Assembly (NCBI GenBank): GCA_032718475.1
Contig: JAUCBJ010001657.1
Coordinates: forward strand, 1-42,267
DNA length: 42,267 nt
Origin: Nemertoderma westbladi
Taxonomy: Eukaryota; Animalia; Xenacoelomorpha
Direction: 5' to 3'
Shown: positions 12,033-42,267 of the stretch, in pieces
Layout of the letters: each line of letters begins with the position of its first letter
Position numbering within the stretch: the first letter of the stretch is position 1
Program-made: the position numbers and the translations under genes
The notes under the pieces: model-generated
The model's database searches: none
Told to the model about the DNA's origin: nothing
The model's input: the letters and a program-made list of their open reading frames with translations, nothing else

Positions 12033-12585
12033 TAATGTTTGAAATTTAAATAAATTAATTTTTTAAATCATCTAAAAAACACATATTTTGTGTTTCCGGT
12101 CACTTTGCGCCATTAACTCGAGAAATCACATCCGCGTTTTTGACTGTCGGTCATAAGTGATAAATTATCTATAACGAAAGACTTAAAATCGTCTAAAAAC
12201 TACTTATTGTACAACTCATAATCAGAAATTACACAAAAGTGAATTGTATGCGTTATTGTAGATATATATATTTTTTAAAATATCTGCAAAGACATTTTTG
12301 GCTGTAGAATTAAATTGATAATAAATACTATTGTTTACCGCTAGGGGTGCAAGTTAAATTCATAAGAATTAAAGGCAATTTCCTTGTAATTGTTTATTCT
12401 GGGCCATTATGCCTAGATTGGGCCATTTTGTTCTAGGTGGGCCATATTTGCCCTAAGAGGACGTGTACCTTTTGGGCCATCGTAGTAGGATTAGGGCCAT
12501 TGCTCCCAGCCCAAGGCCATTTAAGGGCCATTGGACCTTTAAAAGGTGGCCCTAATAGTGGGAAAGCTTATATATATATATATAT

Positions 12586-21585: not shown

Positions 21586-23940
21586 CTAGAAAGCCTGTGG
21601 CCCTTCGGGCCACAGCTTTCTAGTGCACGTGCAGATGATATATGAATATGTGTGGGAGATTTGAGAACTGCATACGGAACAGACACCATCATTAAATAAA
21701 ACACCACCCCCATAAGAGATAACTGTCAAGTTTCAACTTTAGGCAGATTGTAAATAACAAAATTTCTAGAAAATAATCACTTTCAGATCCACCCTCTACC
21801 TGCGGACTGGTGAAATGCAGACGGCGCTGCAGTTTGGTAAAGATGGGGTTTATGGTGAAGTAAAATGCCTGCCTTTCAAGTTTCAGCTTAAACAGGTTGT
21901 AAATAACAAAATTGGTGTAGATGTTCACATTCAGACATTTCACCCTCTAGCGGTAGACTGAAGAACTGTAGACGACTCTGGGACTCCGTAAAGATACAGA
22001 ATATGCTGTAGTAGATTCCTGCCAAGTTCCAGCTCAATAGGATTAAAAAGAACCAAATGGGATGAGGTGTTCACTATCAGATATGTCGCCCTCTAGCGGT
22101 AGACTGGGGAATTGTAGACGACTCTGTGACTCAGTAAAGATACAGCCTTTGCTGTAGTAGATGCCTACCAAGTTTCAGTCTAAACGGATTGTAAATAACA
22201 AAGTTGGAGAAGATGTTAACTCTCAGACATTTCGCCCTCTAGCGGTAGACTGGGGAATTGTAGACGACTCTGCGACTCAGTAAAGATACAGCCTTTGCTG
22301 TAGTAGATGCCTACCAAGTTTCAGTCTAAACGGATTGTAAATAACAAAGTTGGAGAAGATGTTAACTCTCAGACATTTAGCCCTCTAACGGTAGACTGGG
22401 GAATTGTAGACGACTCTGCGACTCAGTAAAGATACAGCCTTTGCTGTAGTAGATGCCTACCAAGTTTCAGTCTAAACGGATTGTAAATAACAAAGTTGGA
22501 GAAGATGTTAACTTTCAGACATTTCGCCCTCTAGCGGTAGACTGGGGAATTGTAGACGACTCTGCGAATCAGTAAAGATACAGCCTTTGCTGTAGTAGAT
22601 GCCTACCAAGTTTCAGTCTAAACGGATTGTAAATAACAAAGTTGGAGAAGATGTTATCTCTCAGACATTTAGCCCTCTAACGGTAGACTGGGGAATTGTA
22701 GACGACTCTGCGACTCAGTAAAGATACAGCCTTTGCTGTAGTAGATGCCTACCAAGTTTCAGTCTAAACGGATTGTAAATAACAAAGTTGGAGAAGATGT
22801 TAACTTTCAGACATTTCGCCCTCTAGCGGTAGACTGGGGAATTGTAGACGACTCTGCGACTCAGTAAAGATACAGCCTTTGCTGTAGTAGATGCCTACCA
22901 AGTTTCAGTCTAAACGGATTGTAAATAATAAAGTTGGAGAAGATGTTAACTCTCAGACATTTAGCCCTCTAACGGTAGACTGGGGAACTGTAGACAACCC
23001 AGTGACTCCGGAAATATACAGCCTATGCTGCAGTATATAGCAACCAAGTTTCAGCTCAAAAGCATTAAAAACAACCCAATGAGATCAGGTTTTCAGTATC
23101 GAACAATTCGCCCTCTAGCGGCAGACGGTGGAACTTCAGACGGCTCTGAGTATTACGTTGCAACAAGTTAGGGCAAGACCTATCTAACGAGCTATAGTAA
23201 GCGAGATTTCATCGAGATTAGATGTATAATATTAGATAAAATAATAATACAGTAAGTATAGGCCTACAGAAATAATTATTTTACTTTTAATATTCATAAC
23301 AGTAAAACAAAAATGTTATAAACCTCTCCTTCCATGCAGCCAATGATTGAGAAAGCAGAATTACTCTGAGCAATTCGCAATAGACAACCCAAACCCACCC
23401 CAATCAACACTCCAGCCTGCTTGCTCCTTATCTGTGCCCAGCCAGCTAGCTGCGAGTTCAATAATTACCTTAACGTTGCTATGATACAGAAAACAATCCT
23501 TCCCTATTCAATAACTATAGGCCCATTCGATCGTGCTTGGCGAATATGACATATTTATACACTATTTGATTTTTAATCAATAAATAATCATACATATTTA
23601 TATTAAACACTCGAATAAAATAAAAACTTTGTGAGAATGGGACACGGCGAATCTACCCATGTTAATTTTATACCAGGTGGGATAAATGTTAGCCCTCTAA
23701 ATCATTAATTACCGATAGAAGAACCGAAATAATTCGATAAATTTCGCCCGAAAATCACGAAAATCGCCCTCTAGCGGCAGACGGGGAACTTCAGACGGGT
23801 CTGAGTATTACGTTGCAACGAGTTAGGGCGAGACCTTTCTAACGAGCTATAGTAAGCGAGATTTCATCGAGATGGGTTCGATTGTATAGCTGATGACAAA
23901 CAGACAGACAGACAGACAATGCATATTTATATATATTAGA
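21586..23940 (-). mobile_element. Helitron-like unit 5 (2355 bp)
   Basis: TC...CTAG termini; ~10 monomers; shares diagnostic variants with unit 2. Confidence 0.85.
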
Positions 23941-26145
23941 CTAGAAAGCCTGTGGCCCTTCGGGCCACAGCTTTCTAGTGCACGTGCAGATGATATATGA
24001 ATATGTGTGGGAGATTGGAGAACTGCATACGGAACAGACACCATCATTAAATAAAACACCACCCCCATAAGAGATAACTGTCAAGTTTCAACTTTAGTCA
24101 GATTGTAAATAACAAAATTGGTGTAAATGTTCACATTCAGACTTCTACAGTAGCGGTAGACTGAAGAACTGTAGACGACTCTGGGACTCAGTAAAGATAC
24201 AGAATATGCTGTAGTAGATTCCTGCCAAGTTTCAGCTCAAAGGGATTAAAAAGAACCAATTGGGATGAGGTGTTCACTATCAGACAATTCGCCCTCTAGC
24301 GGCAGATAGGGGAACTGTATACAACTCTGCGACTCCGTAAAGGTAGAGCCTATGCTGTAGTAGATGCCTACCAAGTTTCAGTCTAAACCGTTTGTAAATA
24401 ACAAAGTTGGAGAAGATGTTAACTTTCAGACATTTCACCCTCTAGCGGTAGACTGGGGAAGTGTATAGGACTCTGCAACTCCGTAAAGATAGAGCCTAGG
24501 ACGTAGTAGATACCTTCCAAGTTTCAGCTCAAAAGGATTAAAAAGAACCAAATGGGATGAGGTATTCACTATCAGACAATTCGCCCTCTTGCGGCTGACT
24601 GTGGAACTGTAGACGACTCTACTACTCCGCAAAGATATAGCCTATGCTATAGTAGATGCCTACCAAGTTTCAGTCTAAAAGGATTGTAAATAACAAAGTT
24701 GGAGAAGATGTTAACTTGCAGACATTTCGCCCTCTAGCGGTAGACTGGGAAATTGTAGACGACTCTGCGACTCAGTAAAGATACAGCCTATGCTGTAGTA
24801 GATGCCTACCAAGTTTCAGTCAAAACGGATTGTAAATAATAAAGTTGGAGAAGATGTTAACTCTCAGACATTTAGCCCTCTAACGGTAGACTGGGGAACT
24901 GTAGACAAATCAGTGACTCCGGAAATATACAGCCTATGCTGCAGTATATAGCTACCAAGTTTCAGCTCAAAAGCATTAAAAATAACAAAGTTGGAGAAGA
25001 TTTTAACTTTCAGACATTTCGCCCTCTAGCGGTAGACCAGGGAATTGTAGACGACTCTGCTACTCAGTAAAGATACAGTCTATGCTGTAGTAGATGCCTA
25101 CCAAGTTTCAGTCTAAACGGATTGTAAATAACAAAGTTGGAGAAGATGTTAACTCTCAGACATTTAGCCCTCTAACGGTAGACTGGGGAACTGTAGACAA
25201 GCCAGTGACTCCGGAAATAATACAGCCTATGCTGCAGTATATAGCTACCAAGTTTCAGCTCAAAAGCATTAAAAACAACCCAATCAGATCAGGTTTTCAC
25301 TATCAGACAATTCGCCCTCTAGCGGCAGACGGGGGAACTTCAGACGGCTCTGAGTATTACGTTGCAACGACTTAGGGCGAGACCTATCTAACGAGCTATA
25401 GTAAGCGAGATTTCATTGAGATTAGATGTATACTATTAGATAAAATAATAATACAGTAAGTATAGGCCTACATAAATAATTATTTTCCTTTTAATATTCA
25501 TAACAGTAAAACAAAAATGTTATAAACCTCTCCTTCCATGCAGCCAATGATTGAGAAAGCAGAATTACTCTTGAGCAATTCGCAACAGACAACCCAAACC
25601 CACCCCAATCAACACTCCAGCCTGCTTGCTCCTTATCTGTGCCCAGCCAGCTAGCTGCGAGTTCAATAATTACCTTAACGTTGCTATGATACAGAAAACA
25701 ATCCTTCCCTATTCAATAACAATAGGCCAATTCGATCCTGCTTGGCAAATATGACATATTTATACACTATTTGATTTTTAATCAATAAATAATCATACAT
25801 ATTTATATTAAACACTCGAATAAAATAAAAACTTTGTGAGAATGGGACACGGCGAATCTACTCATGTTAATTTTATACCAGATGGGATAAATGTTACCCC
25901 TCTAAATCATTAATTACCGATAGAAGAACCGAAATAATTCGATAAATTTCGCCCGAAAATCACGAAAATCGCCCAGCGGCAGACGGGCGAACTTTCGACG
26001 GCTCTGAGTATTACGTTGCAACGAGTTAGGGCGAGACCTTTCTAACGAGATATAGCAAGCGAGATTTCATCGAGATGGGTTCGATTGTATAGCCGATGAC
26101 AAACACACAGACAGACAATCGATATTTATATATATAGATACTAGA
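23941..26145 (-). mobile_element. Helitron-like unit 6 (2205 bp)
   Basis: TC...CTAG termini; lacks the monomer containing aaatgatcactttcagatcc; ~9 monomers. Confidence 0.85.
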
Positions 26146-27719
26146 CTAGAAAGCCTGTGGCCCTTCGGGCCACAGCTTTCTAGTGCATGTGCAGATTATA
26201 TATGAATATGTGTGGGAGATTGGAGAACTGCATACGGAACAGACACCATCATTAAATAAAACACCACCCCCATAAGAGATAACTGTCAAGTTTCAACTTT
26301 AGGCAGATTGTAAATAACAAAATTTCCAGAAAATGATCACTTTCAGATCCACCCTCTACCTGCGGACTGGTGAAATGCAGACGACGCTGCAGTTTGGTAA
26401 AGATGGGGTTTATGGTGAAGTAAAATGCCTGCCTTTCAAGTTTCAGCTTAAACAGATTGTAAATAACAAAATTGGTGTAGATGTTCACATTCAGACATTT
26501 CACCCTCTAGCGGTAGACTGAAGAACTGTAGACGACTCTGGGACTCCGTAAAGATACAGAATATGCTGTAGTAGATTCCTGCCAAGTTCCAGCTCAAAGG
26601 GATTAAAAAGAACCAATTGGGATGAGGTGTTCACTAACAGACAATTCGCCCTCTAGCGGCAGATAGGGGAACTGTATACAACTCTGCGACTCAGTAAATG
26701 TAGAGCCTATGCTGTAGTAGATGCCTACCAAGTTTCAGTCTAAACCGTTTGTAAATAACAAAGTTGGAGAAGATGTTAACTTTCAGACATTTCACCCTCT
26801 AGCGGTAGACCGGGGAAGTGTATAGGACTCTGCATTCCGTAAAGATAGAGCCTATGATGTAGTAGATACCAACCAAGTTTCAGCTCACTAATGATTAAAA
26901 AGAACCAAATGGGATGAGGTTTTCACTATCAGACAATTCGCCCTCTTGCGGCTGACTGTGGAACTGTAGACAACTCTACTACTCCGCAAAGATATAGCCT
27001 ATGCTATAGTAGATGCCTACCAAGTTTCAGTCTAAAAGGATTGTAAATAACAAAGTTGGAGAAGATGTTAACTTTCATACATTTCGCCCTCTAGCGGCAG
27101 ACGCGGGTACTGTAGACAACTCTGCGCGACTCAGTAAAGATATAGCCTATGCTGTAGTAGATGCCTACCAAGTTCAGTCTAAATGGATTATAAATAACAA
27201 AGTTGGAGAAGATGTTAACTTTCAGACATTTCGCCCTCTAGCGGTAGACCGGGGAATTGTAGACGACTCTGCTACTCAGTAAAGATACAGTATATGCTGT
27301 AGTAGATGCCTACCAAGTTTCAGTCTAAACGGATTGTAAATAACAAAGTTGGAGAAGATGTTAACTCTCAGACATTTAGCCCTCTAACGGTAGACTGCGG
27401 GGAACTGTAGACAACCCAGTGACTCCGGAAATAATACAGCCTATGCTGCAGTATATAGCTACCAAGTTTCAGCTCAAAAGCATTAAAAACAACCCAATAA
27501 GATCGGGTTTTCACTATCGGACAATTCGCCCTCTAGCGGCAGACGGGGGAACTTCAGACGGCTCTGAGTATTACGTTGCAACGACTTAGGGCGAGACCTA
27601 TCTAACGAGCTATAGTAAGCGAGATTTCATGGAGATTAGATGTATAATATTAGATAAAATAATAATACAGTAAGTATAGGCCTACAGAAATAATTATTTT
27701 ACTTTTACAGTAATATTCA
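26146..27719 (-). mobile_element. Helitron-like unit 7, 5'-truncated or interrupted (1574 bp)
   Basis: Stops at taatattca|, where full units continue with taacagtaaaac. Confidence 0.8.
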
Positions 27720-29871
27720 CTAGAAAGCCTGTGGCCCTTTGGGCCACAGCTTTCTAGTGCACGTGCAGATGATATATGAATATGTGTGGGAGATATGAGA
27801 ACTGCATACGGAACAGACACCATCATTAAATAAAACACCACCCCCATAAGATATAACTGTCAAGTTTCAACTTTAGGCAGATTGTAAATAACAAAATTTC
27901 CAGAAAATGATCACTTTCAGATCCACCCTCTACCTGCGGACTGGTGAAATGCAGACGGCACTGCAGTTTGGTAAAGATGGGGTTTATGTTGAAGTAAAAT
28001 GCCTGCCTTTCAAGTTTCAGCTTAAACAGATTGTAAATAACAAAATTGGTGTAGATGTTCACATTCAGACATTTCACCCTCTAGCGGTAGACTGAAGAAC
28101 TGTAGACGACTCTGGGACTCCGTAAAGATACAGAATATGCTGTAGTAGATTCCTGCCAAGTTCCAGCTCAATAGGATTAAAAAGAACCAAATGGGATGAG
28201 GTGTTCACTATCAGATATGTCGCCCTCTAGCGGCAGATGGGGGGACTGTATACAACTCTGTGACTCCGTAAAGGTACAGCCTATGCTGTAGTAGATGCCT
28301 ACCAAGTTTCAGTCTAAACCGTTAGTAAATAACAAAGTTGTAGAAGATGTTAACTTTCATACATTTCACCCTCTAGCGGTAGACTGGGGAAGTGAATAGG
28401 ATTCTGCAACCCCATAAAGATACAGCCTATGATGTAGTAGATACCAACCAAGTTTCAGCTCAAAATGATTAAAAAGAACCAAATGGGATGAGGTTTTCAC
28501 TATCAGACAATTCGCCCTCTAGCGGCCGACTGTGGAACTGTAGACGACTCTACTACTCCGCAAAGATATAGCCTATGCTATAGTAGATGCCTACCAAGTT
28601 TCAGTCTAAAAGGATTGTAAATAACAAAGTTGGAGGAGATGTTAACTTTCATACATTTCGCCCTCTAGCGGTAGACTGGGGAAGTGAATAGGATTCTGCA
28701 ACCCCATAAAGATACAGCCTATGATGTAGTAGATACCAACCAAGTTTCAGCTCAAAATGATTAAAAAGAACCAAATGGGATGAGGTTTTCACTATCAGAC
28801 AATTCGCCCTCTAGCGGCCGACTGTGGAACTGTATACAACTCTGCGACTCAGTAAATGTAGAGCCTATGCTGTAGTAGATGCCTACCAAGTTTCAGTCTA
28901 AACCGTTTGTAAATAACAAAGTTGGAGAAGATGTTAACTTTCAGACATTTCACCCTCTAACGGTAGACCGGGGAAGTGTATAGGACTCTGCAACTCCGTA
29001 AAGATAGAGCCTATGATGTAGTAGATACCAACCAAGTTTCAGCTCACTAATGATTAAAAAGAACCAAATGGGATGAGGTTTTCACTATCAGACAATTCGC
29101 CCTCTTGCGGCTGACTGTGGAACTGTAGACAACTCTACTACTCCGCAAAGATATAGCCTATGCTATAGTAGATGCCTACCAAGTTTCAGTCTAAAAGGAT
29201 TGTAAATAACAAAGTTGGAGAAGATGGAAACTTTCATACATTTCGCCCTCTAGCGGCAGACGCGGGTACTGTAGACAACTCTGCGCGACTCAGTAAAGAT
29301 ATAGCCTATGCTGTAGTAGATGCCTACCAAGTTCAGTCTAAATGGATTATAAATAACAAAGTTGGAGAAGATGTTAACTTTCAGACATTTCGCCCTCTAG
29401 CGGTAGACCGGGGAATTGTAGACGACTCTGCTACTCAGTAAAGATACAGTCTATGCTGTAGTAGATGCCTACCAAGTTTCAGTCTAAACGGATTGTAAAT
29501 AACAAAGTTGGAGAAGATGTTAACTCTCAGACATTTAGCCCTCTAACGGTAGACTGGGGAACTGTAGACAACCCAGTGACTCCGGAAATAATACAGCCTA
29601 TGGTGCAGTATATAGCTACCAAGTTTCAGCTCAAAAGCATTAAAAACAACCCAATAAGATCGGGTTTTCACTATCGGACAATTCGCCCTCTAGCGGCAGA
29701 CGGGGGAACTTCAGACGGCTCTGAGTATTACGTTGCAACGACTTAGGGCGAGACCTATCTAACGAGCTATAGTAAGCGAGATTTCATGGAGATTAGATGT
29801 ATAATATTAGATAAAATAATAATACAGTAAGTATAGGCCTACAGAAATAATTATTTTACTTTTAATATTCA
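27720..29871 (-). mobile_element. Helitron-like unit 8, 5'-truncated or interrupted (2152 bp)
   Basis: Same taatattca|ctag breakpoint as unit 7; ~13 monomers. Confidence 0.8.
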
Positions 29872-30303
29872 CTAGAAAGCGTGTGGCCCTTCGGGCCACA
29901 GCTTTCTAGTGCACGTGCAGATGATATATGAATATGTGTGGGAGATATGAGAACTGCATACGGAACAGACACCATCATTAAATAAAACACCACCCCCATA
30001 AGATATAACTGTCAAGTTTCAACTTTAGGCAGATTGGAAATAACAAAATTTCCAGAAAATGATCACTTTCAGATCCACCCTCTACCTGCGGACTGGTGAA
30101 ATGCAGACGGCGCTGCAGTTTGGTAAAGATGGGGTTTATGGTGAAGTAAAATGCCTGCCTTTCAAGTTTCAGCTTAAACAGATTGTAAATAACAAAATTG
30201 GTGTAGATGTTCACATTCAGACATTTCACCCTCTAGCGGTAGACTGGGGAACTGTAGACAACCCAGTGACTCCGGAAATATACAGCCTATGCTGCAGTAT
30301 ATA
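29872..30303 (-). mobile_element. Helitron-like unit 9, interrupted by the LTR retrotransposon
   Basis: The unit sequence gctgcagtatata|gctacc is replaced by gctgcagtatata|TGTGACGGG at 30304. Confidence 0.85.
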
Positions 30304-30845
30304 TGTGACGGGATCCAGGAGGGATCCCGATTTATCCGATGTGGTAATTTAGTCCACGCGTCCCCGCCGTGTATAAGGGTGAGATAAAGTGTCTGAGTTC
30401 TGAAGTTCGGTGTATAATAATGATAGGGCATAAGATATAGATATAGATATAATGTGTACAAGGCGGGATACGGTAACTAAAGTCCCGTGATCCCCTAACT
30501 AAACTAATTGATTACCAACCTACGCTAGCACTGCTGCACTGAGATAACTGAATCACTGATTAATAGGTTACTGGTTATATTGCACGGTGGCCTTACTGCT
30601 ACTCAATCGATGCCATTCCCCCCCTCTGATTGGTTAATACCCTTGTTGGCGCCCCGTGGAGTATTCCCGTTCACTCCACCTGTTCTCCCTGGGTTAGGGG
30701 TTTGGCCCCTGACCCTCTATTGTGTGCTTCCTTCCCACTCTTATTGGGATGGCACGAGTTGGTTAATTGCCCAATCTCGTGGCTCCCAATATTGCTTATC
30801 GGCTTACAACTTTATGGGGTTTTGGCGGGATTGAATAAGCTAACA
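30304..30845 (-). repeat. 3' LTR (~542 bp, TGTTAGC...CGTCACA)
   Basis: TG...CA termini, immediately preceded by GGGGGGGAG. The inner boundary cannot be confirmed without the 5' LTR; alternative starts are 30904 (TGTAGCG) and 31326 (TGAGGGCG). Confidence 0.7.
30546..30633 (-). promoter_or_regulatory. Putative LTR Pol II promoter (CCAAT, TATA-like, Inr)
   Basis: Minus strand shows CCAATC at 30633-30628, ATATAA at 30580-30575 and TCAGTT at 30551-30546, about 30 nt downstream of the TATA-like box. The same arrangement is in the second LTR copy. Confidence 0.55.
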
Positions 30846-30854
30846 CTCCCCCCC
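30846..30854 (-). promoter_or_regulatory. Polypurine tract (PPT)
   Basis: GGGGGGGAG|TGTT junction; a second copy GGGGGGAG|TGTT lies at 31863-31870. Confidence 0.7.
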
Positions 30855-31360
30855 ATGCTATCTTCCCGGTAAGAAGATAGCATCAACCAAAAAAGTGCGC
30901 TACAATCCCGCTGGATCCCGATCTAGTATCGGGTGTGGGGTGGAATTCTTTTCTCTTGGAGCCGGCTTTCCAGGCCGCCCCCTATGGGTATGATAACGCT
31001 ACCCTGTGTGCCTGGCGTCTCATGTCGGGCCGATCGCGCTCACCTCTTCACACGACTTTTGTTTCCCCAACACTTTCGCCCTATCCCACCTTCACTTTCA
31101 CCCTAACTCTCTCACATTCGGACCTCCTCGTCCCTTACTCAGCCTCTTATTCTCCCCCCCCACACTCTAGAATCGCGTCCGCACTCTCTCTGCACTCCAC
31201 TCTATCCTAACTAACTAACTAACTCTTACTACCTAACTTCTACCTACTCTATTATTTAATTATTTTCTTATTTTTAATTAAATAATTATTTTATATTTTG
31301 TGCGTGGGAAGGGCGTCTCGCCCTCATTCCCACCCCCCTCAGTCCAAAACTTTGGACTGA

Positions 31361-32229
31361 GGTAATTTAGTCCACGCGTCCCCGCCGTGTATAAGGGTGA
31401 GATAAAGTGTCTGAGTTCTGAAGTTCGGTGTATAATAATGATAGGGCATAAGATATAGATATAGATATAATGTGTACAAGGCGGGATACGGTAACTAAAG
31501 TCCCGTGATCCCCTAACTAAACTAATTGATTACCAACCTACGCTAGCACTGCTGCACTGAGATAACTGAATCACTGATTAATAGGTTACTGGTTATATTG
31601 CACGGTGGCCTTACTGCTACTCAATCGATGCCTTTCCCCCCTCTGATTGGTTAATACCCTTGTTGGCGCCCCGTGGAGTATTCCCGTTCACTCCACCTAT
31701 TTCCTCTGGGTTAGGGGTTTGGCCCCTGACCCTCTATTGTGTGCTTCCTTCCCACTCTTATTGGGATGGCACGAGTTGGTTAATTGCCCAATCTCGCGGC
31801 TCCCAATATTGCTTATCGGCTTACAACTTTATGGGGTGTTGGCGGGATTGAATAAGCTAACACTCCCCCCATGCTATCTTCCCGGTAAGAAGATAGCATC
31901 AACCTAAAAGTGCGTTACAATCCCGCTGGATCCCGATCTAATATCAGGTGTGGGGTGGAATTCTTTTCTCTAGGAGCCGGCTTTCCAGGCCGCCCCCTAT
32001 GGGTATGATAACGCTACCCTGTGTGCCTGGCGTCTCATGTCGGGCCGATCGCGCTCACCTCTTCACACGACTTTTGTTTCCCCAACACTTTCGCCCTATC
32101 CCACCTTCACTTTCACCCTAACTCTCTCTCACATTCGGACCTCCTCGTCCCTTACTCAGCCTCTTATTCTCCCCCCCCCCCCCCACACTCTAGAATCGCG
32201 TCCGCACTCTCTCTGCACTCCACTCTATC
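31361..32229 (-). repeat. Second copy of 3' UTR + PPT + LTR (LTR lacks its terminal ~39 bp)
   Basis: Near-identical direct repeat of 30343-31206 with scattered substitutions and small indels. Confidence 0.92.
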
Positions 32230-32583
32230 ACTTCGTCCCTCAACCTCACTTCGACTCTTTTATCTCTCCTGACGAACCTCCCCCCCCCCCTCTCGTGCCG
32301 TCGCACTCGAGAAGTGTGAAATTGTCAGTTGTCTCGTCCATAGTGCCATAGTCAGTTATCCCCCAGTCCCAGTAGCTAATTGAGAAAGGTTGTATGACTA
32401 TAGTACTTACTCCAAACGTATGTATATTTCTAGATTACTAATTACTACGTACGTACATACAAATTGCACTTATATGATTATTTGCATTAATTAAATTTGT
32501 ACTTAATAGTTTGTACGTTACATGCGGCGCCTTCTAGGCGCACCACGTCCCAGTCTCAGTCTCATTCCCTCGTCTCCGGGAAC

Positions 32584-33498
32584 TTATCTGTATCTCCTCA
32601 CGTCCTCTTCCCTGGCCCGTTTCTTGGTTATCACCGCTCCTCTGGCATCATCCGCTTTCTGTTTCCGGACCTTCGCTGCCACTTCCTTGCTGATCCCGGT
32701 CGTCGGCTCCTTGGGCGCTGGTGTTATTAAAGCCCGATACCGCTTCGCCGGTGGCCCCTCAGAATGGCCTGGTTGTTTCCCTCGAGTGGCGTCCCATAGG
32801 ATCATTTTCATTGCCTTTGGTACGTGTTCCGCCAAGAAATCCCTAAACTCCCTCCGGTTCTCTGGTGTCCACCTGTCCAGGTACCGTTGCGTGTTCATAA
32901 CTCCGGCGAACGATGCCGCCGTTGCTACCTCTTGATAGGTAAACGGTAACCTTCGCTTTATGATTTCCATGTGGGTCTCCTGGTTTATGAGGAAGAAACC
33001 CCACTTGAACTCTTGGGCCTTCATGCGCTGGCGCGTCATGGCCCCGACGTCGGCCCACTCCTCGAACCTCGTGAACTTCTCCTCGTCGCTCATCCAGTCG
33101 CACTCGCGTCCGTAGTGCCCCCGAAAGTGGCACTTTGGACATCGGTTATGCAACCGTGGACACGCCCCCATCCTGTGACTTGGTTCTCTACAGTAGAGAC
33201 AAAAGGTTCCCCGTTGGAACCGGTATAGGCAGCTGCTTTCCTGATGGGTCTGTCTCCCACAGTAGTCGCAGCCGAGTACCAATGTCTCCCGTCCCACCTC
33301 GTCTTTCGTCCCAAGCGATCTCCGCGGTCTATGGAGTCGCTGGTAGGCGAACTTCTCCACGTTGCTCTCCCTGTTTACGTCGATCTCTCCGCCCCTCTCG
33401 TGCATCGTCTCCCCGAATACTATCCGTGGTGCCGTCCCCGGTTGCTCGCCCAACCTGATGGTGCTCCCCGCGAAATCCATCGCCGGCTCCTCGTGCAC
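32584..33498 (-). CDS. Accessory ORF3: protein with three CCHC zinc knuckles (first ATG at 33480)
   Basis: CDYCGRQTHQESSC, CLYCREPSHRMGAC and CPKCHFRGHYGREC are all exact CX2CX4HX4C. They are followed by a helical region and a basic tail (PPAKRYR, TKKRAR). Confidence 0.8.
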   Translation of the reverse strand: MHEEPAMDFAGSTIRLGEQPGTAPRIVFGETMHERGGEIDVNRESNVEKFAYQRLHRPRRSLGTKDEVGRETLVLGCDYCGRQTHQESSCLYRFQRGTFCLYCREPSHRMGACPRLHNRCPKCHFRGHYGRECDWMSDEEKFTRFEEWADVGAMTRQRMKAQEFKWGFFLINQETHMEIIKRRLPFTYQEVATAASFAGVMNTQRYLDRWTPENRREFRDFLAEHVPKAMKMILWDATRGKQPGHSEGPPAKRYRALITPAPKEPTTGISKEVAAKVRKQKADDARGAVITKKRAREEDVRRYR

Positions 33499-35102
33499 CC
33501 AGGTCCGCTTGCCGGATCTGTTCCAGTTACTGGGAATGAGGGCGTCTCGCCCTCATTCCCACCCCCCTCAGTCCAAAACTTTGGACGACTAAAAACTCTC
33601 ACGTGCCCCTTCTTCCAGTAGGCACTCTCCTGCTGCCCTCCTATACGTCCTCTAACTCTTCGCCACACTCTCTTCGGTGCCACCTTTGCTGGCCTCCCCC
33701 TTCGTATGTGCGCTGGCATTAGAGCCCTCGACGACCCCCGCTCGTCCCTCGGTATACGCGGTGTCTGCCCATGTAATGCCCCCTCGCACTGTGTCAGCCC
33801 TGCGTGTGTATGCAACACGCCTCCTTCTACTTTCCCGACTCCTTTGCTCATGGACTTCTCTACCCCTGGTTTAGTCCTTTCACATCCTCTCCCTTTCCAA
33901 CACTCTCCGGATCTGTGTCCTTTTACCACACATCGATGACATAGTCCGTTTGCGTCTGTGTAGGCTACACGATCTCGTTTGGGCAACGCTTGCCAGTACT
34001 TACAACTCCTGGTCTTATGGGTTCCGTCCCGATGTAATTGACATTGGAATCCTGGATTATAGCGTTTCCTGTATAGTCCTTCACGTATCGCGCTTAGGTT
34101 TATATGTACCGATTTAATGTTTTGGTTGTCTAGACTCGGCCTACTGGGTATATTGGGATTGTGTTTATTTTTGGTGTTATTTTCTTTCTGTCCCTGCCAC
34201 GGTGTGGCCCTGCTACCACCTAACTGTGGACTAGCAGTCCCCTGTACGGCCGCGTGTGGTATCGACTGTCCGCACGACCTGTTCTCGTCCAAGGGGTTCG
34301 ATGTTCTCGCTCCTATTGGGGTATATTGTCGATATTGTGATGGGGGAATGTCACCCTGTCCCCCCCCGGCCGGTATGTTTGGTACTGGGGTTGATGTTAA
34401 TACATTGGGGCCCATACGTCTATCTCCAATAACTCTCCCCTCCCCTGGATATATGTTATGTCCCTGTGTATTATAGTCATGCTGCTGTACCGATATAGGC
34501 CTACCCACTTCTTGCCTACCTACCGGTATGTACTCCGCGGCTCCCGGGTTTAACCCCGTCGCTCGCGCTACCCTATCGCCTACTCTATCTCTCCTAGCAT
34601 GGCCTATAATAGTATGTGCAGTAAGGCCTACAGTATGTCCTGCAGTCTGCATGTGCCCTTCCGAACCGAAGTTTAATCTTCGCGAATCTCGAATCTCCCC
34701 GCGACTACCGCACTCTCGATCGGCAGCTATATCCCGTCGGGAAGCTTCTCTTCTATCCCCTCTCCTGCTCTCGACTTTGCATCGGTACGTCCTGTACCCC
34801 TCTCTTCGCGTGTTGTGTGTTTCTCCGGGGCGACGGCAATCTCCCGAAGTTCGACCCCACTCACTCCCCAACTCCATCTCTACTATCGACGGCCCGCTAT
34901 CCGTCCTCACACTCCTATCGTTCGTGGCGACACTTCTTCTACTATCTTCTCTTCTTCTCTTTTCTGTGTGGTATTCCGGTTCGTGAGGTCTCTCGTCGAC
35001 CCCCCGGTTAAACTCCACTATTCTCCCTCTCTCTTCTGATCGGGCTCGACGCTTCGTCTGCCCTCTCGCGACGTCAACCTGCCTCTCTCTACTCGATCGC
35101 AC
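33420..35102 (-). CDS. Accessory ORF2: Arg/Gly-rich protein containing a diverged duplicate of the element's Gag nucleocapsid region
   Basis: 560 open codons. QGTASPQ...NKHNP...SRP...AIR..LY...CQLH...HKT..C.YWQALP...C.RCV..GH...EC aligns without obvious gaps to the same segment of the main polyprotein. The start codon is uncertain (the track uses GTG). Confidence 0.75.
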   Translation of the reverse strand: MRSSRERQVDVARGQTKRRARSEERGRIVEFNRGVDERPHEPEYHTEKRRREDSRRSVATNDRSVRTDSGPSIVEMELGSEWGRTSGDCRRPGETHNTRREGYRTYRCKVESRRGDRREASRRDIAADRECGSRGEIRDSRRLNFGSEGHMQTAGHTVGLTAHTIIGHARRDRVGDRVARATGLNPGAAEYIPVGRQEVGRPISVQQHDYNTQGHNIYPGEGRVIGDRRMGPNVLTSTPVPNIPAGGGQGDIPPSQYRQYTPIGARTSNPLDENRSCGQSIPHAAVQGTASPQLGGSRATPWQGQKENNTKNKHNPNIPSRPSLDNQNIKSVHINLSAIREGLYRKRYNPGFQCQLHRDGTHKTRSCKYWQALPKRDRVAYTDANGLCHRCVVKGHRSGECWKGRGCERTKPGVEKSMSKGVGKVEGGVLHTHAGLTQCEGALHGQTPRIPRDERGSSRALMPAHIRRGRPAKVAPKRVWRRVRGRIGGQQESAYWKKGHVRVFSRPKFWTEGGGNEGETPSFPVTGTDPASGPGCTRSRRWISRGAPSGWASNRGRHHG

Positions 35103-35942
35103 GCCGCTGGGGATACTCGCAATCCCCCTATTACTCTCCGTCGCCGGGTGTTGCGGTTTACCTGATTCGGCCCGCGCATTATCCGCTGACGGCTGTGGGA
35201 CACTCTCTGCCCCCCCTCTCTCTCTACTAACTTCTCGCGGTGGGGTGTCCGTAGCCCCCCCCCACCCGCCACTTCTAACTTCACTATCTCTAACTCTCTA
35301 ACTCTACTACCTGGCACCCTATGTGCCTTCTCTACTACTCTACTCTATCTCTAACTCTCTAACTATACTACCTGGCACCCTATGTGCCCGTCTACTACTC
35401 TACTCTTTTTGTGCCCGGCACCTCTTGTGCCCGGCACCCACCCTAATTAACATACCTTGCTTTTACATCAAACACATCATCACGCCCGTGCCCCACTAAG
35501 TTCAGCGCATTCCCTACTAACTCTAACTACGTGGCGCTTACGGTGCCCACAACCCTCTACTGCTACTACTAACACCCCTAACTAGCGGTACTACGTACCC
35601 TCTTACTGCTCCTAACTCTCTCTACTAGCTAGCGGTACAACGTACCCTCTTACTACTCTAGCTCTCTCTACTAGCTAGCGGTACTACGTACCCTCTTACT
35701 CTTACTACTCTCTAGCCGGTACTTACGTACCCTCTAACTCTTACTCTCTAACCGGTACTTACGTACCCTCTAACTCTAACTAACTAGCGGTACTTACGTA
35801 CCCTCTAACTCTAACTCTAACTAACGGTACTACGTACCTACTAACTCTAACTCTAACTAGGTACCACGTACCTACTGACTCTCTAACTAACCCTAGGTAC
35901 TACGTACCTACTAACTCTAACTCTAACTAGCGGTACTACGTA

Positions 35943-36689
35943 TATATATATATATATTGTTTATTCACAATCGGTATAAGATATGTAAATAGATACAAAC
36001 ACCGCTCATCCCTTGGAGAACCAAAAGTCCAAATTGCACAGGCACAAGTGAAACTGAAACTATAGAGAGCACCTACAGAGTAGGCCTATTCGTGAAACAA
36101 TAAGTAAATGTCATTTATGAAATGCACAACTACAAGAGTACATATGAAAACAATAACTAAATGTCATTAATGAAATAGACAAGAAACTATAAATAAATAA
36201 GTCTGGGCAAACACTCTGAGTACGTATGAAAAAATAAACTATAAATAAATAAGTCTGGACAAAAACTCAGAGTACGTATGAAAACAATAAACTATAAATA
36301 AATAAGTCTGGACAAAAACTCAGAGTACGTATGAAAACAATAAACTATAAATAAATAAGTCTGGACAAAAACTCAGAGTACGTATGAAAAAATAACCTAT
36401 AAATAAATAAGTCTGGACAAAAACTCAGAGTACGTATGAAAACAATAAACTATAAATAAATAAGTCTGGACAAAAACTCAGAGTACGTATGAGAAAATAA
36501 ACTATAAATAAATAAGTCTGGACAAAAACTCAGAGTACGTATGAAAAAATAAACTATAGATAAATAAGTCAGGACAAAAACTCAGAGTACGTATGAAAAA
36601 ATAAACTATAAATAAATAAGTCTGGACAAAAACTCAGAGTACGTATGAAAACAATAAACTATAAATAAATAAGTCTGGACAAAAGTAGG
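35943..36689 (-). mobile_element. Probable 5'-truncated non-LTR retroposon (LINE/SINE 3' end) inserted in the BEL element
   Basis: The minus strand ends ...GAATAAACAA(TA)n. The insert is flanked by ACTACGTA at 35935-35942 and 36690-36697 (candidate TSD, though in a repetitive context). Confidence 0.5.
36184..36684. repeat. 52-53-bp minisatellite, ~9.5 copies
   Basis: Unit aaactataaataaataagtctggacaaaaactcagagtacgtatgaaaa(c)aat; the taagtc anchor recurs ten times from ~36198 to ~36670. Confidence 0.95.
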
Positions 36690-37082
36690 ACTACGTACCT
36701 ACTAACTCTCTAACTATCGGTACTACGTACCCTCTAACTCTAACTAACTATTGGTACTACGTACCCTCTAACTCTAACTCTAACTAGGTACTACGTACCT
36801 ACTAACTCTAACTCTAGGTACTACGTACCTACTAACTAACTAACTCTAGGTACTACGTACCTACTAACTAACTAACTCTAGGTACTACGTACCTACTAAC
36901 TAACTAACTCTAGGTACTACGTACCTACTAACTAACTAACTCTAGGTACTACGTACCTACTAACTAACTAACTATTATTTTTATTTTATTTTATTTTTAT
37001 TTGTATGGGAAGGGCGTTTCGCCCTCAATCCCACCCCCCTCAGTCCAAAACTTGGACGACTAAACTCCACACTAACTCCGCT

Positions 37083-38107
37083 CTAAGGTGCTCCTTCTAA
37101 GAGACAGCATTTACCTACCGCTCTCCTGTAGGTTTTTCTGTCCTTCGCACCTATCCTTCCACCTATCCGCACTTCTACCGATCGGACTCTTCCGTCCTCG
37201 TCGGAGTAGGTGCCTACAACTCTCGCCAACCGCCATTGGTTGTTGATGATAGTATCATCCGTGACGATTACGAGATCTCCCTCTCTCAACTCCCTGTTTG
37301 GCTTCCTCCACTTGCTTCGCTTATGGAGCGTGGGTAGGTATTCTTCTACCCACCTCCTCCAATACTCTGCGCTTATTGCTTTAGCGACTTTCCAACTTTG
37401 GCGGGAGTGTATGTCATCTGGGTCTACACCCCGCATATCGATGGTCGCTGGCCTTTCCATCAGAAAATGGCTAGGCGTCAACACGTCTAATGACTCAGGG
37501 TCATCATTCTCTGGATATAGCGGTCTGCTATTAATTATCCCCTCGCACTTCGCAAGTACTGTCCGTAAGACGTCCTCAGTGACCATGTGGGGTGGGTGTT
37601 CATTAACTTCGTCATTAGACGCTTTGAACTGCCCACCAATCTTTCGACGCATCCTAGTGTATGTGGTGCATACGGCGTCCGTCTCTCCCACTTTACTTGT
37701 CGTCTCCTCATGGCCGCCCTGACTTCTTCTCCCTCCAAAACGTCCAAGGCCTCTGCCATCTCATTCTCTGCGCCCACAAAGTTGGTGCCGTTATCGCTAT
37801 ATATCACTGCGATCGTCCCACCTTTGCGGTCCCTGAACCTTTCTAAGGCGTTAATGAACGCTGATGCGGTTGCATCTTGGGCGAGTTCTATCCCCACCGC
37901 CCGCGTATTGTTGCATACGAAGATAATGCCTTAACGTTTCTCCGTGTGTCGCATCACTTTGATCTTTATCGGCCCGAACATGTCCACACCGCAATGCGTA
38001 AATGGCGGGTCGTGCTGTCTTACCCTACTCGCCGGTAGTGGCGCCATCTCCTGTACGGCTCGTTCCTTCTTCGCTCGTCGGCAGGTCTGGCACTGCCCCA
38101 CTACCAC
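37083..38107 (-). pseudogene. pol: Disabled integrase (HHCC remainder, DDE core, BEL-type C-terminal domain)
   Basis: After the TAA at 38108-38110 the frame continues VVVGQCQTCRR...MAPLP...CGVDMFGP...EKR*GIIFVC (second TAA at 37931-37933), then SDNGTNF...VERLV. A frameshift near 37590-37610 leads into ...INSRPL...LTPSHFL...WRRWVEEYL...GDLVIV...WRLARV. Confidence 0.9.
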
Positions 38108-41100
38108 TTAAACCTTCTTCCTTAGTTGTTTGACCCAATAGGTCCTTCTTATCTCTGTGAGGGTTCGGTTGGTGCCCCCATGCAATATCGATTTATGGGA
38201 GTCCCATATAATCTGGTGGACTATAGGCGATCCTGTGGGAATGATGATGGGTTTCGGTGGCACGGCTATACTGTTGTTATATCCCACCCTAGAATTCATT
38301 ACTAGAATCCCATCCTCGTTGAGTTGTGGCGACAGCGTAATCAACTCGCTGTCCCGTCGGAGGTGCTGTTGGTTGCCGACACGTTCCACCTCGTCGCCGT
38401 AGTTCTTCCGTTGTTCATAGCGGATTACTGCCTTGGCCGCTCCTTCCAGATCTATGGTTGTCCTGGTCTTCTTGTCCTTGCCGACTCCCGCAAGGAAATT
38501 CCCAAAGGCTCTCCAGTACGCCACTAGTTTCTTGGTCTTATACCAACTAGAACTGTAGCTGAGGAGTTTATCCGTCGGGTTATCGCACAGTTCCCTTCCT
38601 GGTTGCACGTCCCTAATCTCCCTCACCATCTGGGAGTATATCTCTTCTCCCTCCGAATCTCCCTCTTCTCCTTCTGATACTACTTCCGAGCCCGGGTCCA
38701 CCTTTCTCATCGGCGGCCAGGCCTCCCTATCGCTCAGAAATTGTGGCCCATGTTGCCACAACACTTCCTTCTTCAGGAAAGTGTGGCGTTCCACGCCCCT
38801 CGACAGCAAGTCCGCTGGGTTCTCGTCTGTTGGGCAGTAGTGCCACCTTTCTAGTTCTGTGGTTGCTCTTATTTCGTCCACTCTATTTGCGACGAATATT
38901 GGGTATCTCGTCCTCTCGTTGTGTAGCCAACCAAGCACTACCATGGAGTCCGTCCAGTAGTGTGTCTCCACTATGTTGGGAATTGTATCCACTAGGTAGG
39001 CTGTGGCTCTAACTCCTAGTCTCGCAGCTGTCAATTCTAACTTGGGAACAGATGCTGAATCTGGCGGCGTTGACTTAGCTTTGCTAAAGGCTAGTCTGGG
39101 CTTGTGAGGCCCCTCTCGTTGTACTAAATAGAGTGCCGCTCCGTATGCCTCTAACGACGCGTCGGAGAACATATGTAAGCCCAGATTCGTCATGTTCCCG
39201 TCCGGGAAATACACTCGCGGCATGTTGTATGTTCCCATCCTCTCCAAGTCTCCTGTCCATTTGCTCCACTGTTTCTTGATGTCCTCTGGTACCTCTACAT
39301 CCCACTCATCCTTCAGTTTATATACTCTCTTGAGTATCTGTTTCCCCGTGACTAGTAGTGGGGATGCTAGGCCTAGGGGATCGTATATCCTTGCTATATA
39401 CGATACATAACCCCTCTTCGTATGGGTGTCTGCGCCCTCCTGGCTCAGCTGATACTTCAGTTCGTCTGTTTTCCTATCCCACACGATTCCCAAAGCCTTC
39501 TGCTGGGATTCCGTTCTCTTAATCGCCATGTCCTGTCCTTTGGCTGTTGTAGGGTTGTCCATGGTCGATTCTGGTTTCTTGTCTTCTATTTCCTTGATAA
39601 ATTCTTCTGAACTGGATTGGAATTTGGTCAGGTTGAAGCCGGATCCTTTCAGGATGTCGCGAACCTCGCGCCCTGTTTCCAGTATCTCCTCAACCGTATT
39701 TCCAGACTCCATACCGTCGTCTACGTAGAAGCCGACTGCTAGAAGTCTACTGCTATATCTATCTTCCTTCCCCTTTACCGTGTCTCTCACTGCCATAGTC
39801 GTCGTAAATGAGGACGACTTGGCCCCCATGTTTTGTACTACCATCTTATATGCCGGTATTATAGGCGGTTCTTCTTCGCCGTTATACCATAAGAAGCGTT
39901 GACTATCGCTATCTTCCTCTGTTACTCGGACTTGGTTGAACATGCCTTCTATGTCACACGTGAAGGCGTGTTTCCCATTCCTAAATCTAAGTAGTACTTC
40001 TATGCCCGAATTGTAAATATTTGGGCCTTCCAACAGGTAATCGTTTAAGCATTTTCCGTCGGTCTTTGCCGATGCATCGACTACCATCCTCAGTTTACCT
40101 TTCTTTGGGTCTAATGCTACGTGGAGTGGCAGGTAGTATGTCCTGTCAGTGTTCGGTTCGTCGACCGGTAACTCCACGGCCAATCCCTTCTCGACGTACT
40201 TCTTGATCGTTTTGTGAATGTACTCGTTCTTCTCGGGGCTCCGTTGTAGTGTTTGTTTCAGCTTGCGGAGTCTCGTGAGTACCATCCCTCTATTATCGGG
40301 TAGCGGTATCTTCGGTAGTTTCCATACCATTCCTATTGTATACCGCCCCTCATCACACGTCATCGATTCCTCCACACTTTGTAGAGCCTGCTTGTCTTCT
40401 ACCGAGGTCCCGACCCCTGTCTCTTTCAGTCCCTCGAAGTCTTGTCTGAGCAGTCTTTTAAGCTGCTCCTCTGCTCCCTCGTCACCTATTTCCTGCATTG
40501 TTCCCGCGAACATGCATCCTGATGTCTCCGACATCCTGAATGGTATCTTGCTCTTAATTGGACCACTCAACGTCCACCCGAATGGCGTTAATATGGCCAC
40601 CGGGTCGCTCTGCTTGTCTTCGCCGAAGACCGTTTGCATTCTCTCGTGGGCCGTTGGGCAGTCCATGCCTACTATGATGGATACCTTCCTAACGTCCACG
40701 TCTGGGATTGAGAAGTCAATGTTGTCCAGGAATTTGTATTGCTCGACCTCGATGTTGGTTGGCCGCCTGGCATTGATGTTAATTGACTCTATTACTTGGA
40801 TGGGGTCGATGGTTGCCCCATAATCGCATCCTGGTGCCACTGCTGCAATTGCGCACCGTCCTGTCCTCATCTCTAGGATCTCGTCTTTGCTAGAGATGGT
40901 TGTCACCACCATCCTGCTTGGCCTCGTTCTCAATCCTATTTCTTCGGCTACCCATTCCTCGACTAATGTGAAGGCAGCTCCACTATCAACCAGCATTAGT
41001 GTTGTTACTGATCGATTGCCTTCCCCGATCACTCGTACTGGTACTACTCCAAGTAGCACTGTTCCTCTCTTCTTCGCCCCTACTGTGCTCGTTGCCATCG

Positions 41101-42187
41101 TTTGGCCTTTCCTTTGGCCAAACTTGACCGGCTTCTCTTGGCATTCCCTGGCCTTGTGTCCACTCTTCACACATCGCGAGCAGATTTTATTGCTCGACGC
41201 GTAATCTATCTGGTCTTGCCTCGGTAGCGCCTGCCAGTACCTGCAGTTCATGGTTTTATGAAGCGCATTTGCGTGTAACTGGCATTTGCTCTTTGGGTCG
41301 TAGCCCTCTTTATACAATGCGTTGCGTATCGCAGTTATATTTGTACCAAAGTCCCTACTATTCTTATTGACTGGGTTTGGCCTACTGGACGTACTGGGGT
41401 TATGTTTATTCATGTTGTTATTGTTCCCCTGTCCGTCCCTTGATGTTGTCTTATCTTCGTTTGTCTGTGGACTTGCAGTCCCCTGCGTCGCTGCGTATGG
41501 CAATGATTGTCTGAGCCTCGGCAATGCGTTTGATGTATTGTGCTCTGGTTTGGGCCTGTAGTGATCTGTCTTTGGTCCCTTTCCCAGGCTATCTTCACTA
41601 TAGACTGGGTCCGTTATTAGTTCAGCCTCGTAATTTAAGAAGTTTGACATTTCTTCTAAACCTGGTTCCACACCCTTCTTGTCTCGGGTGGAGAAAGCGA
41701 TCTTCCTCCATTTGTTGCGCAGCCAGCTCGGTAGTGCCTGCGCTATCGTGGTGATGTTATTGGACGCGTTGAGCTCGTATGGCGCGTCTAGCGTCTTCAG
41801 CACGATCAGCGCGTTCTCGACTTTGTTAGCAAACGTCTTAATGCTAACGGGATTATCCTGTAGGCCACCCGATGTTATGCCTCTCAGCGTCTGCCTGATG
41901 ATCTTGGCCGGGTGCCCGTATTCCCTATCCAGTGCCCGCCATGCTGTCGCGAAGCCGTTCTCTATTCCTTGATATTGCCTCACGATGTCGTATGCTGGGC
42001 CTCCCGTGTACACTTGTAGATACTTTAGGCACTCCGCCTGCGTCAAGTTTTTTGTTAGTATCTCGTTACTATACATTCGCCGAAACTGTAAATATTCTTC
42101 CGGCCTGCTCCCATCGAATTTGAATGGTTCCACGGGTGGTAATTCGATCCTCGTTTTCAACGCATCGATCAACGTGGCCATCCCCAT
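38108..42187 (-). CDS. gag-pol: BEL/Pao Gag-Pol polyprotein: Gag (DUF1759-like), zinc knuckles, aspartic protease, RT, RNase H and integrase N-terminus; the frame stays open to the window end
   Basis: Gag FDG motif; CSRCVKSGHKAREC; protease LVDSGA; RT YLPLH, RMVVDAS, CDIEGMFNQV, YVDD; YDPLG; RNase H FSDAS, LELTAA, WTDS, NPAD; integrase HKSILHGG. There is no stop between 42187 and 42265. Confidence 0.95.
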   Translation of the reverse strand: MGMATLIDALKTRIELPPVEPFKFDGSRPEEYLQFRRMYSNEILTKNLTQAECLKYLQVYTGGPAYDIVRQYQGIENGFATAWRALDREYGHPAKIIRQTLRGITSGGLQDNPVSIKTFANKVENALIVLKTLDAPYELNASNNITTIAQALPSWLRNKWRKIAFSTRDKKGVEPGLEEMSNFLNYEAELITDPVYSEDSLGKGPKTDHYRPKPEHNTSNALPRLRQSLPYAATQGTASPQTNEDKTTSRDGQGNNNNMNKHNPSTSSRPNPVNKNSRDFGTNITAIRNALYKEGYDPKSKCQLHANALHKTMNCRYWQALPRQDQIDYASSNKICSRCVKSGHKARECQEKPVKFGQRKGQTMATSTVGAKKRGTVLLGVVPVRVIGEGNRSVTTLMLVDSGAAFTLVEEWVAEEIGLRTRPSRMVVTTISSKDEILEMRTGRCAIAAVAPGCDYGATIDPIQVIESININARRPTNIEVEQYKFLDNIDFSIPDVDVRKVSIIVGMDCPTAHERMQTVFGEDKQSDPVAILTPFGWTLSGPIKSKIPFRMSETSGCMFAGTMQEIGDEGAEEQLKRLLRQDFEGLKETGVGTSVEDKQALQSVEESMTCDEGRYTIGMVWKLPKIPLPDNRGMVLTRLRKLKQTLQRSPEKNEYIHKTIKKYVEKGLAVELPVDEPNTDRTYYLPLHVALDPKKGKLRMVVDASAKTDGKCLNDYLLEGPNIYNSGIEVLLRFRNGKHAFTCDIEGMFNQVRVTEEDSDSQRFLWYNGEEEPPIIPAYKMVVQNMGAKSSSFTTTMAVRDTVKGKEDRYSSRLLAVGFYVDDGMESGNTVEEILETGREVRDILKGSGFNLTKFQSSSEEFIKEIEDKKPESTMDNPTTAKGQDMAIKRTESQQKALGIVWDRKTDELKYQLSQEGADTHTKRGYVSYIARIYDPLGLASPLLVTGKQILKRVYKLKDEWDVEVPEDIKKQWSKWTGDLERMGTYNMPRVYFPDGNMTNLGLHMFSDASLEAYGAALYLVQREGPHKPRLAFSKAKSTPPDSASVPKLELTAARLGVRATAYLVDTIPNIVETHYWTDSMVVLGWLHNERTRYPIFVANRVDEIRATTELERWHYCPTDENPADLLSRGVERHTFLKKEVLWQHGPQFLSDREAWPPMRKVDPGSEVVSEGEEGDSEGEEIYSQMVREIRDVQPGRELCDNPTDKLLSYSSSWYKTKKLVAYWRAFGNFLAGVGKDKKTRTTIDLEGAAKAVIRYEQRKNYGDEVERVGNQQHLRRDSELITLSPQLNEDGILVMNSRVGYNNSIAVPPKPIIIPTGSPIVHQIIWDSHKSILHGGTNRTLTEIRRTYWVKQLRKKV

Positions 42188-42267
42188 TGCCTGCGCTTCT
42201 AATGGATTCGACGGGTGCTGTATAGTTTCCCCTGTCTGGTGCGGTTCGTCCGTCCTATTTCTTGATC

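Follow-up and report, generated by a model that had tools for sequence, protein, structure and literature searches.

The analysed stretch, contig JAUCBJ010001657.1 of Nemertoderma westbladi (42,267 nt, referred to here as the window), ends on its right side in a minus-strand BEL/Pao retrotransposon that is cut by the window edge and whose 5' end lies beyond position 42267. Between pol and the 3' long terminal repeat (LTR), this element carries two additional open reading frames (ORFs), ORF2 and ORF3. We found it probable that this cassette is an internally deleted sister genome of the element. It comprises ORF2 as a duplicate of the Gag zinc knuckles, the decayed end of a pol, and ORF3 as an accessory gene with a triple-knuckle product that likely binds the element's own RNA. 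The proposed anatomy and origin can be held with good confidence, and the role of ORF3 as an RNA adaptor is a tentative assignment, somewhat short of an even chance. A deleted sister genome behind a working gag-pol was the simplest reading, because the order of gag-like part, pol relic, motif and accessory gene in the cassette repeats the order seen in the relatives. The hairpin motif that follows pol recurs directly behind the relic pol end.

The BEL/Pao identity, which a preliminary description of the window had proposed, was borne out by the Pfam domain set. The long frame of the element contains DUF1759, a protease, reverse transcriptase (RT), Peptidase_A17 and the integrase zinc domain, with rve and DUF5641 on two further pieces; the pol order is protease-RT-RNase H-integrase, as in BEL/Pao elements. 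The LTR of 542 bp behind a purine tract of 9 nt also agrees with this group, in which LTRs of 0.2-1.2 kb follow a tract of about 10 nt. With the BEL/Pao elements (Belpaoviridae, PMC8742986) it shares its domains and their order, the LTR and the purine tract, and it differs from them in having two non-env ORFs after pol and in its length, with more than 11.9 kb already inside the window; env is the only extra BEL/Pao gene described in that work and in the accessible part of PMC3118150. Among the matches listed, all of the best ones of the RT/RNase H (120/120) carried PF05380, which groups it with BEL/Pao. The window pol fell among BEL proteins of aquatic animals (33-38% identity), at an unsure place on a very long branch. 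In the RT/RNase H tree, which contained no named BEL/Pao reference elements, its branch length was 3.06 and it fell in no starred set.

Both ORFs are open, lie on the pol strand and overlap by 133 nt, as had been described. The lengths of 560 and 304 codons given at first, by contrast, count from GTG 35102 and GTG 33498, and from ATG the products have 485 and 298 amino acids (aa). In 2000 second-order Markov simulations of the region, the longest frame had 276 codons and none attained the 322 codons that are open in ORF3, so that frames of this length are not due to chance. CCHC knuckles were confirmed in both: three of the form CX2CX4HX4C in ORF3, and one CCHC plus one CX2HX4HX4C variant in ORF2. 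Neither ORF has a transmembrane helix (best 19-residue hydropathy 0.38 and 0.57) or a Pfam fusogen match. The pol end at 37083 and the LTR start at 30845 were recovered as well, and the two ORFs are indeed knuckle-bearing, basic, non-env ORFs in the env position. Pfam had no family for ORF2 or ORF3, word-index searches returned no homolog of either, and the Atlas matches were all below 0.9 and served as leads only. A -1 frameshift joining ORF2 to ORF3 was considered and rejected, as no canonical slippery heptamer was seen by eye in the overlap. What did not hold is the view of ORF2 and ORF3 as a single accessory module, because the two differ in origin: one is a Gag duplicate with a pol relic and the other a shortened member of a DEDDy accessory family.

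The core of ORF2 is, by sequence comparison, a paralog of the nucleocapsid region of the element's own Gag, so that ORF2 is no new protein. Over 135 aa, residues 332-466 were 48% identical to the knuckle region of Gag (E 2e-32), with no frameshift and with both knuckles present, CCHC and variant being the same pair as in Gag. Over 121 codons, synonymous sites were saturated (pS 0.79, pN 0.30), and third codon positions were 45% identical compared to 66-67% for the first two. Behind the knuckles, integrase traces were weak (17/68 residues in frame and 13/20 in another frame at the very end), and the post-pol motif comes next. As a control, 45 pairs of intact BEL polyproteins with a knuckle-region identity of 40-58% were compared, and their integrase tails had a median identity of 66% and a minimum of 44%. 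The pol part of ORF2 therefore appears to have decayed while the knuckles were kept. The N-terminal half gave no homolog in the homolog search, and it may derive from the Gag N-terminus beyond the window.

By its sequence, ORF3 belongs to an accessory family whose members normally have a DEDDy exonuclease domain; it is a shortened form from which this domain is missing. A full HMMER scan gave 90 relatives, with the knuckle motif H-x4-C-x2-LH-x2-C-x2-C-x3-GH in 70 and the tail F-x-x-x-A-x-x-G-x-x-T in 54 of them. ORF3 matched the family profile with E 1e-38. It carries H-x4-C-x2-LH-x2-C-x2-C-x2-RGH and, after its three knuckles, the FExxADxGxxT tail (FExxADxG..WGF), with a pol end upstream and a purine tract plus LTR downstream. 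The family is largely unnamed: 51 of the 57 relatives scanned with Pfam had no family, only one touched a 3'-5' exonuclease model, and cluster look-ups of 20 relatives returned no name beyond 'hypothetical protein'. One protein of the set, P0001, has the knuckle domain in two copies.

The fold searches put forward in the preliminary description succeeded through the long relatives of ORF3. An alignment of 35 of these matched EXD2 (E 1.3e-12), WRN and Egalitarian; the structure model of one relative matched Egalitarian and EXD2 (E ~1e-6), and also RNase D and Exd1. Trypanosoma brucei RNase D was matched both by fold and by its CCHC part. The model of ORF3 itself, confident over about residues 70-190 and disordered over 1-59, had no clear match: the best VIA hit (Z 4.3) lay on the C-terminal helix and Foldseek gave none at E 0.001, which is no proof of a new fold. 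The typical family layout is a DEDDy exonuclease domain, a long linker and the knuckle domain. EXD2, WRN exonuclease, Egalitarian, Exd1 and T. brucei RNase D share the fold of the N-terminal domain in the long relatives; they differ in being host genes, and the window's ORF3 lacks their domain and has a knuckle domain without a Pfam family. No exonuclease domain was found in any of the six frames of the window, and ORF3 accordingly lacks the domain of the rotifer-type DEDDy ORF3s. Some clades of the family have an intact exonuclease, others a dead one, and ORF3 has none. A rough column check found four acidic positions kept in 18 of the 43 exonuclease domains (five not aligned there), and one whole clade lacked DxE. 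The conserved part of the family is the knuckle domain, which also served as the search key.

Because the nuclease can be dead or lost while the knuckle domain persists, RNA binding was taken as the core function of the accessory protein, and by analogy we favour a role as adaptor or chaperone. Egalitarian is a nuclease-dead RNA adaptor. The titles of its structure entries name complexes with localisation signals, one of them from the I factor. ORF3 contains the basic stretches PPAKRYR and KKRAR, which we take to be similar to nuclear localisation signals (NLS). Its ATG at 33480 has a purine at -3 and a G at +4 and a candidate splice acceptor 50 nt upstream, which makes expression from a spliced RNA likely.

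We then considered the genomic context of the family. A back-translated ORF3-family motif occurred once in the window and in 0/100 shuffles, and was found in at least 120 metagenome stretches, 80 of them with flanks. Of these 80 contigs, 67 have JAAUX/JAAUY prefixes in common and do not count as independent hosts. The family profile matched 73 of the 80. A BEL integrase end lay upstream on the same strand in 30 of the 31 loci with at least 5 kb upstream, and an EXD2/Egalitarian-like DEDDy domain, often catalytically dead, was present in 48 of the 53 with at least 1.8 kb. The upstream pol ORFs that were scanned contained DUF5641 (13/13) and Peptidase_A17 (11/13), while none of seven accessory ORFs scanned had a Pfam family. 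A purine tract and TGT followed the accessory ORF in 18 of 40 long loci, a count without a chance control. Searches with ORF3 alone gave nothing in metagenome or viral contigs, and the degenerate motif gave nothing in viral contigs.

The RT/RNase H tree (49 rows, with 5 partial rows left out) showed four deep clades, each of which was one side of a branch in the knuckle-domain tree (support 99, 88, 100 and 95). The accessory gene is therefore inherited with pol. Since it occurs outside this element too, in no fewer than four deep BEL clades, it does not mark one new lineage, contrary to what had been thought possible. Exchange of the gene between BEL clades is possible, because the place of the window pol is unsure. 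Two accessory ORFs, L047:3341-6529 (1063 codons) and L059:6880-9648 (923 codons), have the knuckle domain without a detectable exonuclease domain or Pfam family and may carry a different N-terminal domain.

The pol stops of the related elements were also compared. TGA followed by C was present in 14 of 41, often as CGG or CAATTA. The pol frame stayed open for at least 300 codons past the stop in 10 of the 14 TGA-C cases (L007, L029, L031, L034, L065, L066, L068, L069, L076 and L080) versus 1 of the 27 others, these related elements not being independent. The accessible part of PMC2754532 includes CAA UYA behind UAG, and CGG behind UGA, among leaky stop contexts. The sequence context suggests readthrough into the accessory gene in these relatives; the window's own pol stop has no TGA-C context.

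The idea that ORF2 and ORF3 form an unrelated nested element with its own ends could draw on the 1.7 kb of repeats between pol and the ORFs. This is very improbable and largely refuted, given that ORF2 is paralogous to this element's Gag and shares the post-pol motif and that the ORF3 family is BEL-linked. Separate termini around the ORFs, which had been named as a point that would change the picture, were not seen among the listed repeats.

For the origin as a deleted sister genome, we propose the following course. A template switch between co-packaged sibling RNAs would have set the cassette behind a full-length gag-pol, and ORF3 would thereby have remained in its ancestral place behind a relic pol. 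ORF2 would afterwards have been retained as a free nucleocapsid-like protein with its pol part decaying. Translation of ORF3 would begin at its own ATG, with a spliced or subgenomic RNA as the probable template. The product of ORF3 would serve as an adaptor or chaperone in the export, transport or packaging of the element's genomic RNA, and would be neither a nuclease nor a fusogen.

The adaptor reading has its strongest competitor in counter-silencing. With the same anatomy, the full form of the accessory protein would trim or destroy PIWI-interacting RNAs (piRNAs), small interfering RNAs or their precursors, and dead or nuclease-less forms, ORF3 among them, would bind and hold back small RNAs or silencing proteins. 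In favour of such a role, the N-terminal domain in this family has matches to EXD2, Exd1 and Nibbler-type folds, 18 of the 43 exonuclease domains look catalytically complete and ORF3 has the presumed NLS-like stretches; moreover, the available part of PMC5408684 counts EXD1 and Maelstrom among the inactive DEDD proteins that take part in piRNA biogenesis. On the other hand, the nuclease is dispensable, being dead in one clade and absent in the window's ORF3 and in 5 of 53 loci, and we regard counter-defence as rather unlikely.

To evaluate the state of the ORFs in the family, variants in sequencing reads were used. Contigs of three studies covered ORF2 and ORF3 throughout in deep runs, like gag-pol, although this depth is no copy number. 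The preliminary claim that both ORFs are intact agreed with this cover and with the few frameshift variants, which, among 12 of 17 indel rows, reached at most 2.5% of the depth in three deep runs. Among the best 40 of 365 and the best 40 of 1195 variant rows by support, with 0.28 expected, the synonymous share was 5/7 in ORF3 (p 0.02), 3/4 in the knuckle/3' part of ORF2 (p 0.07) and 6/9 in gag-pol (p 0.02), and no stop-making variant was listed in these three parts. These variants suggest selection on ORF3. In some contigs ORF3 had internal deletions. These deletions, the missing exonuclease domain of ORF3 and the N-terminal half of ORF2, in which no selection signal was found, would fit a recently captured relic without present function, carried by a successful family. 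Such a relic would hardly keep ORF2 open through a mosaic of decayed parts with 8/8 zinc ligands, or show rare frameshift variants and mostly synonymous variants in ORF3 (p 0.02, a small set), and it seems improbable to us.

Several observations weigh against the deleted sister genome. The variant counts come from the best-supported rows only, and in the N-terminal half of ORF2 just 5/20 were synonymous. The general BEL integrase profile did not detect the relic in ORF2, and the DNA alignment of the relic without the motif was no better than the best shuffle. The synonymous saturation could already have built up in the ancestor of ORF2, at a time when it still functioned as gag. In the trees, the window's pol and its ORF3 are each on a long branch whose position is not resolved. 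No contig among those of the family spanned pol and ORF2 or ORF3, some read joints pointed to siblings without the cassette, and the stretch 31207-31357 reads as the 3' end of such a sibling without ORF2/ORF3.

The last points bear on a further explanation, in which one LTR serves two families: a gag-pol element that lacks the cassette and is autonomous, and a non-autonomous partner with ORF2-ORF3. The locus would then have arisen by rare recombination or by a join in the assembly. In favour of this, a cassette-bearing end and a cassette-less end stand in tandem on the 3' side here, joints such as 36731 to 31207 and 36841 to 31228 suggest that the post-pol repeats can be linked directly to the 3' block, and the spacer part 36040-36455 had very low cover. 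Against this, neither an LTR nor a primer site was seen from pol to ORF2, and the joints 35749 to 36717 and 35618 to 36710 bridge the low-cover part, their short side measuring only 20-25 letters and lying inside repeats. We consider two families unlikely.

Juno and Vesta are Gypsy-like elements. DEDDy-exonuclease ORF3s are described for these LTR elements and for Athena elements of bdelloid rotifers in the accessible part of PMC5408684, and for Juno/Vesta also in that of PMC5718144. By the former account, the rotifer ORF3s resemble the family of ORF3 in having a DEDDy-type exonuclease ORF in the env position that is spread over distant lineages. Compared by description, the family of ORF3 differs in being BEL-linked, in its C-terminal triple-knuckle domain and in being often nuclease-dead, and nuclease-less in the window. 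The words 'CCHC' and 'zinc' are absent from the main text of PMC5408684, where a Cys-His-Cys motif is noted in two rotifer ORFs. In the C. elegans element Cer1, the env position is taken by CERV, a non-env accessory protein that is expressed from a spliced RNA and on which export of the genomic RNA depends. CERV comprises H, M and G domains and includes a cysteine-rich RNA-contact region, an NLS candidate and a candidate C4 finger (PMC10309623, accessible part). Unlike the ORF3 family, CERV has no CCHC knuckles or exonuclease fold in that source, and Cer1 belongs to Gypsy/Ty3. From its likeness in position and composition, CERV may be a model for how ORF3 works. Other acquired domains are described in plant Gypsy elements (PMC9289625, accessible part). 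In the open literature, we found no report of an exonuclease or knuckle extra ORF in BEL/Pao; Repbase, GyDB and supplements were outside this scope, and a Repbase entry could show the architecture. 'Exonuclease' is also absent from the main texts of PMC8556966 and PMC6238403.

A conserved non-env accessory gene without a Pfam family in several deep BEL clades changes the picture of gag, pol and sometimes env. The family also gives a testable handle on an open question, the role of the enzymatic 'ORF3s' of LTR elements: because it offers a series of active, dead and nuclease-less forms, an RNA-binding role can be separated from catalysis. The window in turn illustrates a route by which an element can acquire accessory genes, namely the reuse of a sister genome. 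A bolder proposal, which we find conceivable yet doubtful, is a fourth class of BEL/Pao genes. It would consist of an ancient DEDDy nuclease or pseudo-nuclease with a new triple-knuckle RNA-binding domain, inherited with pol in several deep clades and translated by readthrough in one, acting as a Rev-like RNA adaptor or an anti-piRNA factor, and it would have been rebuilt here from a captured sister genome as a free nucleocapsid and a bare knuckle domain.

As shown in Table 1, more than 11.9 kb of the element lie inside the window. This copy's pol, which ends at 37083, is damaged by stops near 38110 and 37931 and a frameshift near 37590, and at these sites the contigs of the element's family mostly differ from the window copy. 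The 6.2 kb from pol to the 3' LTR also contain a second, 3'-truncated LTR with its own purine tract, three copies of the hairpin motif and minisatellites. The 3' end is duplicated, with the 872-bp block 31358-32229 being 97% identical to 30340-31206. The TGT of the complete LTR (30845-30304) directly follows the purine tract, and its other end adjoins a 146-bp satellite, which begins at 30303 in one contig, directly past the LTR end.

Table 1. Features of the BEL/Pao element and its cassette in the window
Feature	Position	Strand	Basis or remark
Gag-pol long frame: capsid DUF1759, two knuckles, protease, RT, RNase H, integrase zinc domain; ends at premature stop	38108..42265	-	ORF and Pfam
Integrase core and C-terminus (rve, DUF5641)	37083..38107	-	interrupted by stop near 37931, frameshift near 37590
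Hairpin / G-run / hairpin motif, copy 1	37011..37064	-	directly after pol stop, then A-rich tract
Non-coding spacer of short tandem repeats	35284..36973	.	includes 52-bp array 36184-36684 with low contig cover
ORF2, 625 codons open, first ATG 34877 (485 aa)	33420..35297	-	low-complexity N-terminal half, Gag knuckle duplicate, pol relic
ORF2 part paralogous to own Gag nucleocapsid region	33900..34304	-	65/135 aa identical, 8/8 zinc ligands
Decayed integrase C-terminal relic in ORF2	33604..33797	-	17/68 aa in frame; last 20 codons 13/20, other frame
Motif copy 2, after relic pol end; perfect 14-bp stem	33539..33593	-	then candidate splice acceptor 33530 (predicted from sequence)
ORF3, 322 codons open, ATG 33480 (298 aa)	32584..33552	-	exonuclease-less BEL accessory family member, basic C-terminal helix
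ORF3 family domain	33000..33270	-	three CCHC knuckles and FExxADxGxxTxxR..WGF tail
3' untranslated block, copy 1	31863..32229	-	polypurine tract at end
First LTR copy	31358..31862	-	without about the last 36 bp
Motif copy 3 (31310-31357) and A-rich/AGTT spacer	31207..31357	-	78% like post-pol sequence
3' untranslated block, copy 2	30846..31206	-	polypurine tract 30846-30854 at end
Complete 3' LTR, 542 bp, TGT...ACA	30304..30845	-	inserted in 146-bp satellite

The motif with two hairpins and a G-run measures 48-55 nt, and its copies stand after pol, after the ORF2 pol relic and at the start of the duplicated end. It usually has an A-rich tail and is also carried by other pol ends in the reads; an Rfam scan of 30200-37200 gave no match for it. 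The idea that its G-run is the purine tract and that ORF3 lies inside a long LTR was ruled out, as the sequences after the three copies differ. In addition, 18/40 long loci of relatives have GGGG(G)A(G)+TGT downstream of the accessory ORF, as at 30854-30843.

Other parts of the window were also noted. The region 35960-36684 is AT-rich with a 52-bp minisatellite, is covered by few contigs and is likely particular to this copy. At 12790-30303, blocks of the 146-bp satellite and spacers of about 1.3-1.5 kb form a higher-order repeat, one unit of which contains the BEL insertion. At 7178-7884 lies a 163-bp tandem array that includes inverted pieces, and a pair of 74-nt inverted repeats 1.3 kb apart at 10551-12037 resembles a miniature inverted-repeat transposable element. 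Finally, a minus-strand frame of more than 580 codons at 2-1750, with a single stop at 602-604 and neither a Pfam match nor similarity to the BEL element, runs off the window and is possibly the gag start of another element.

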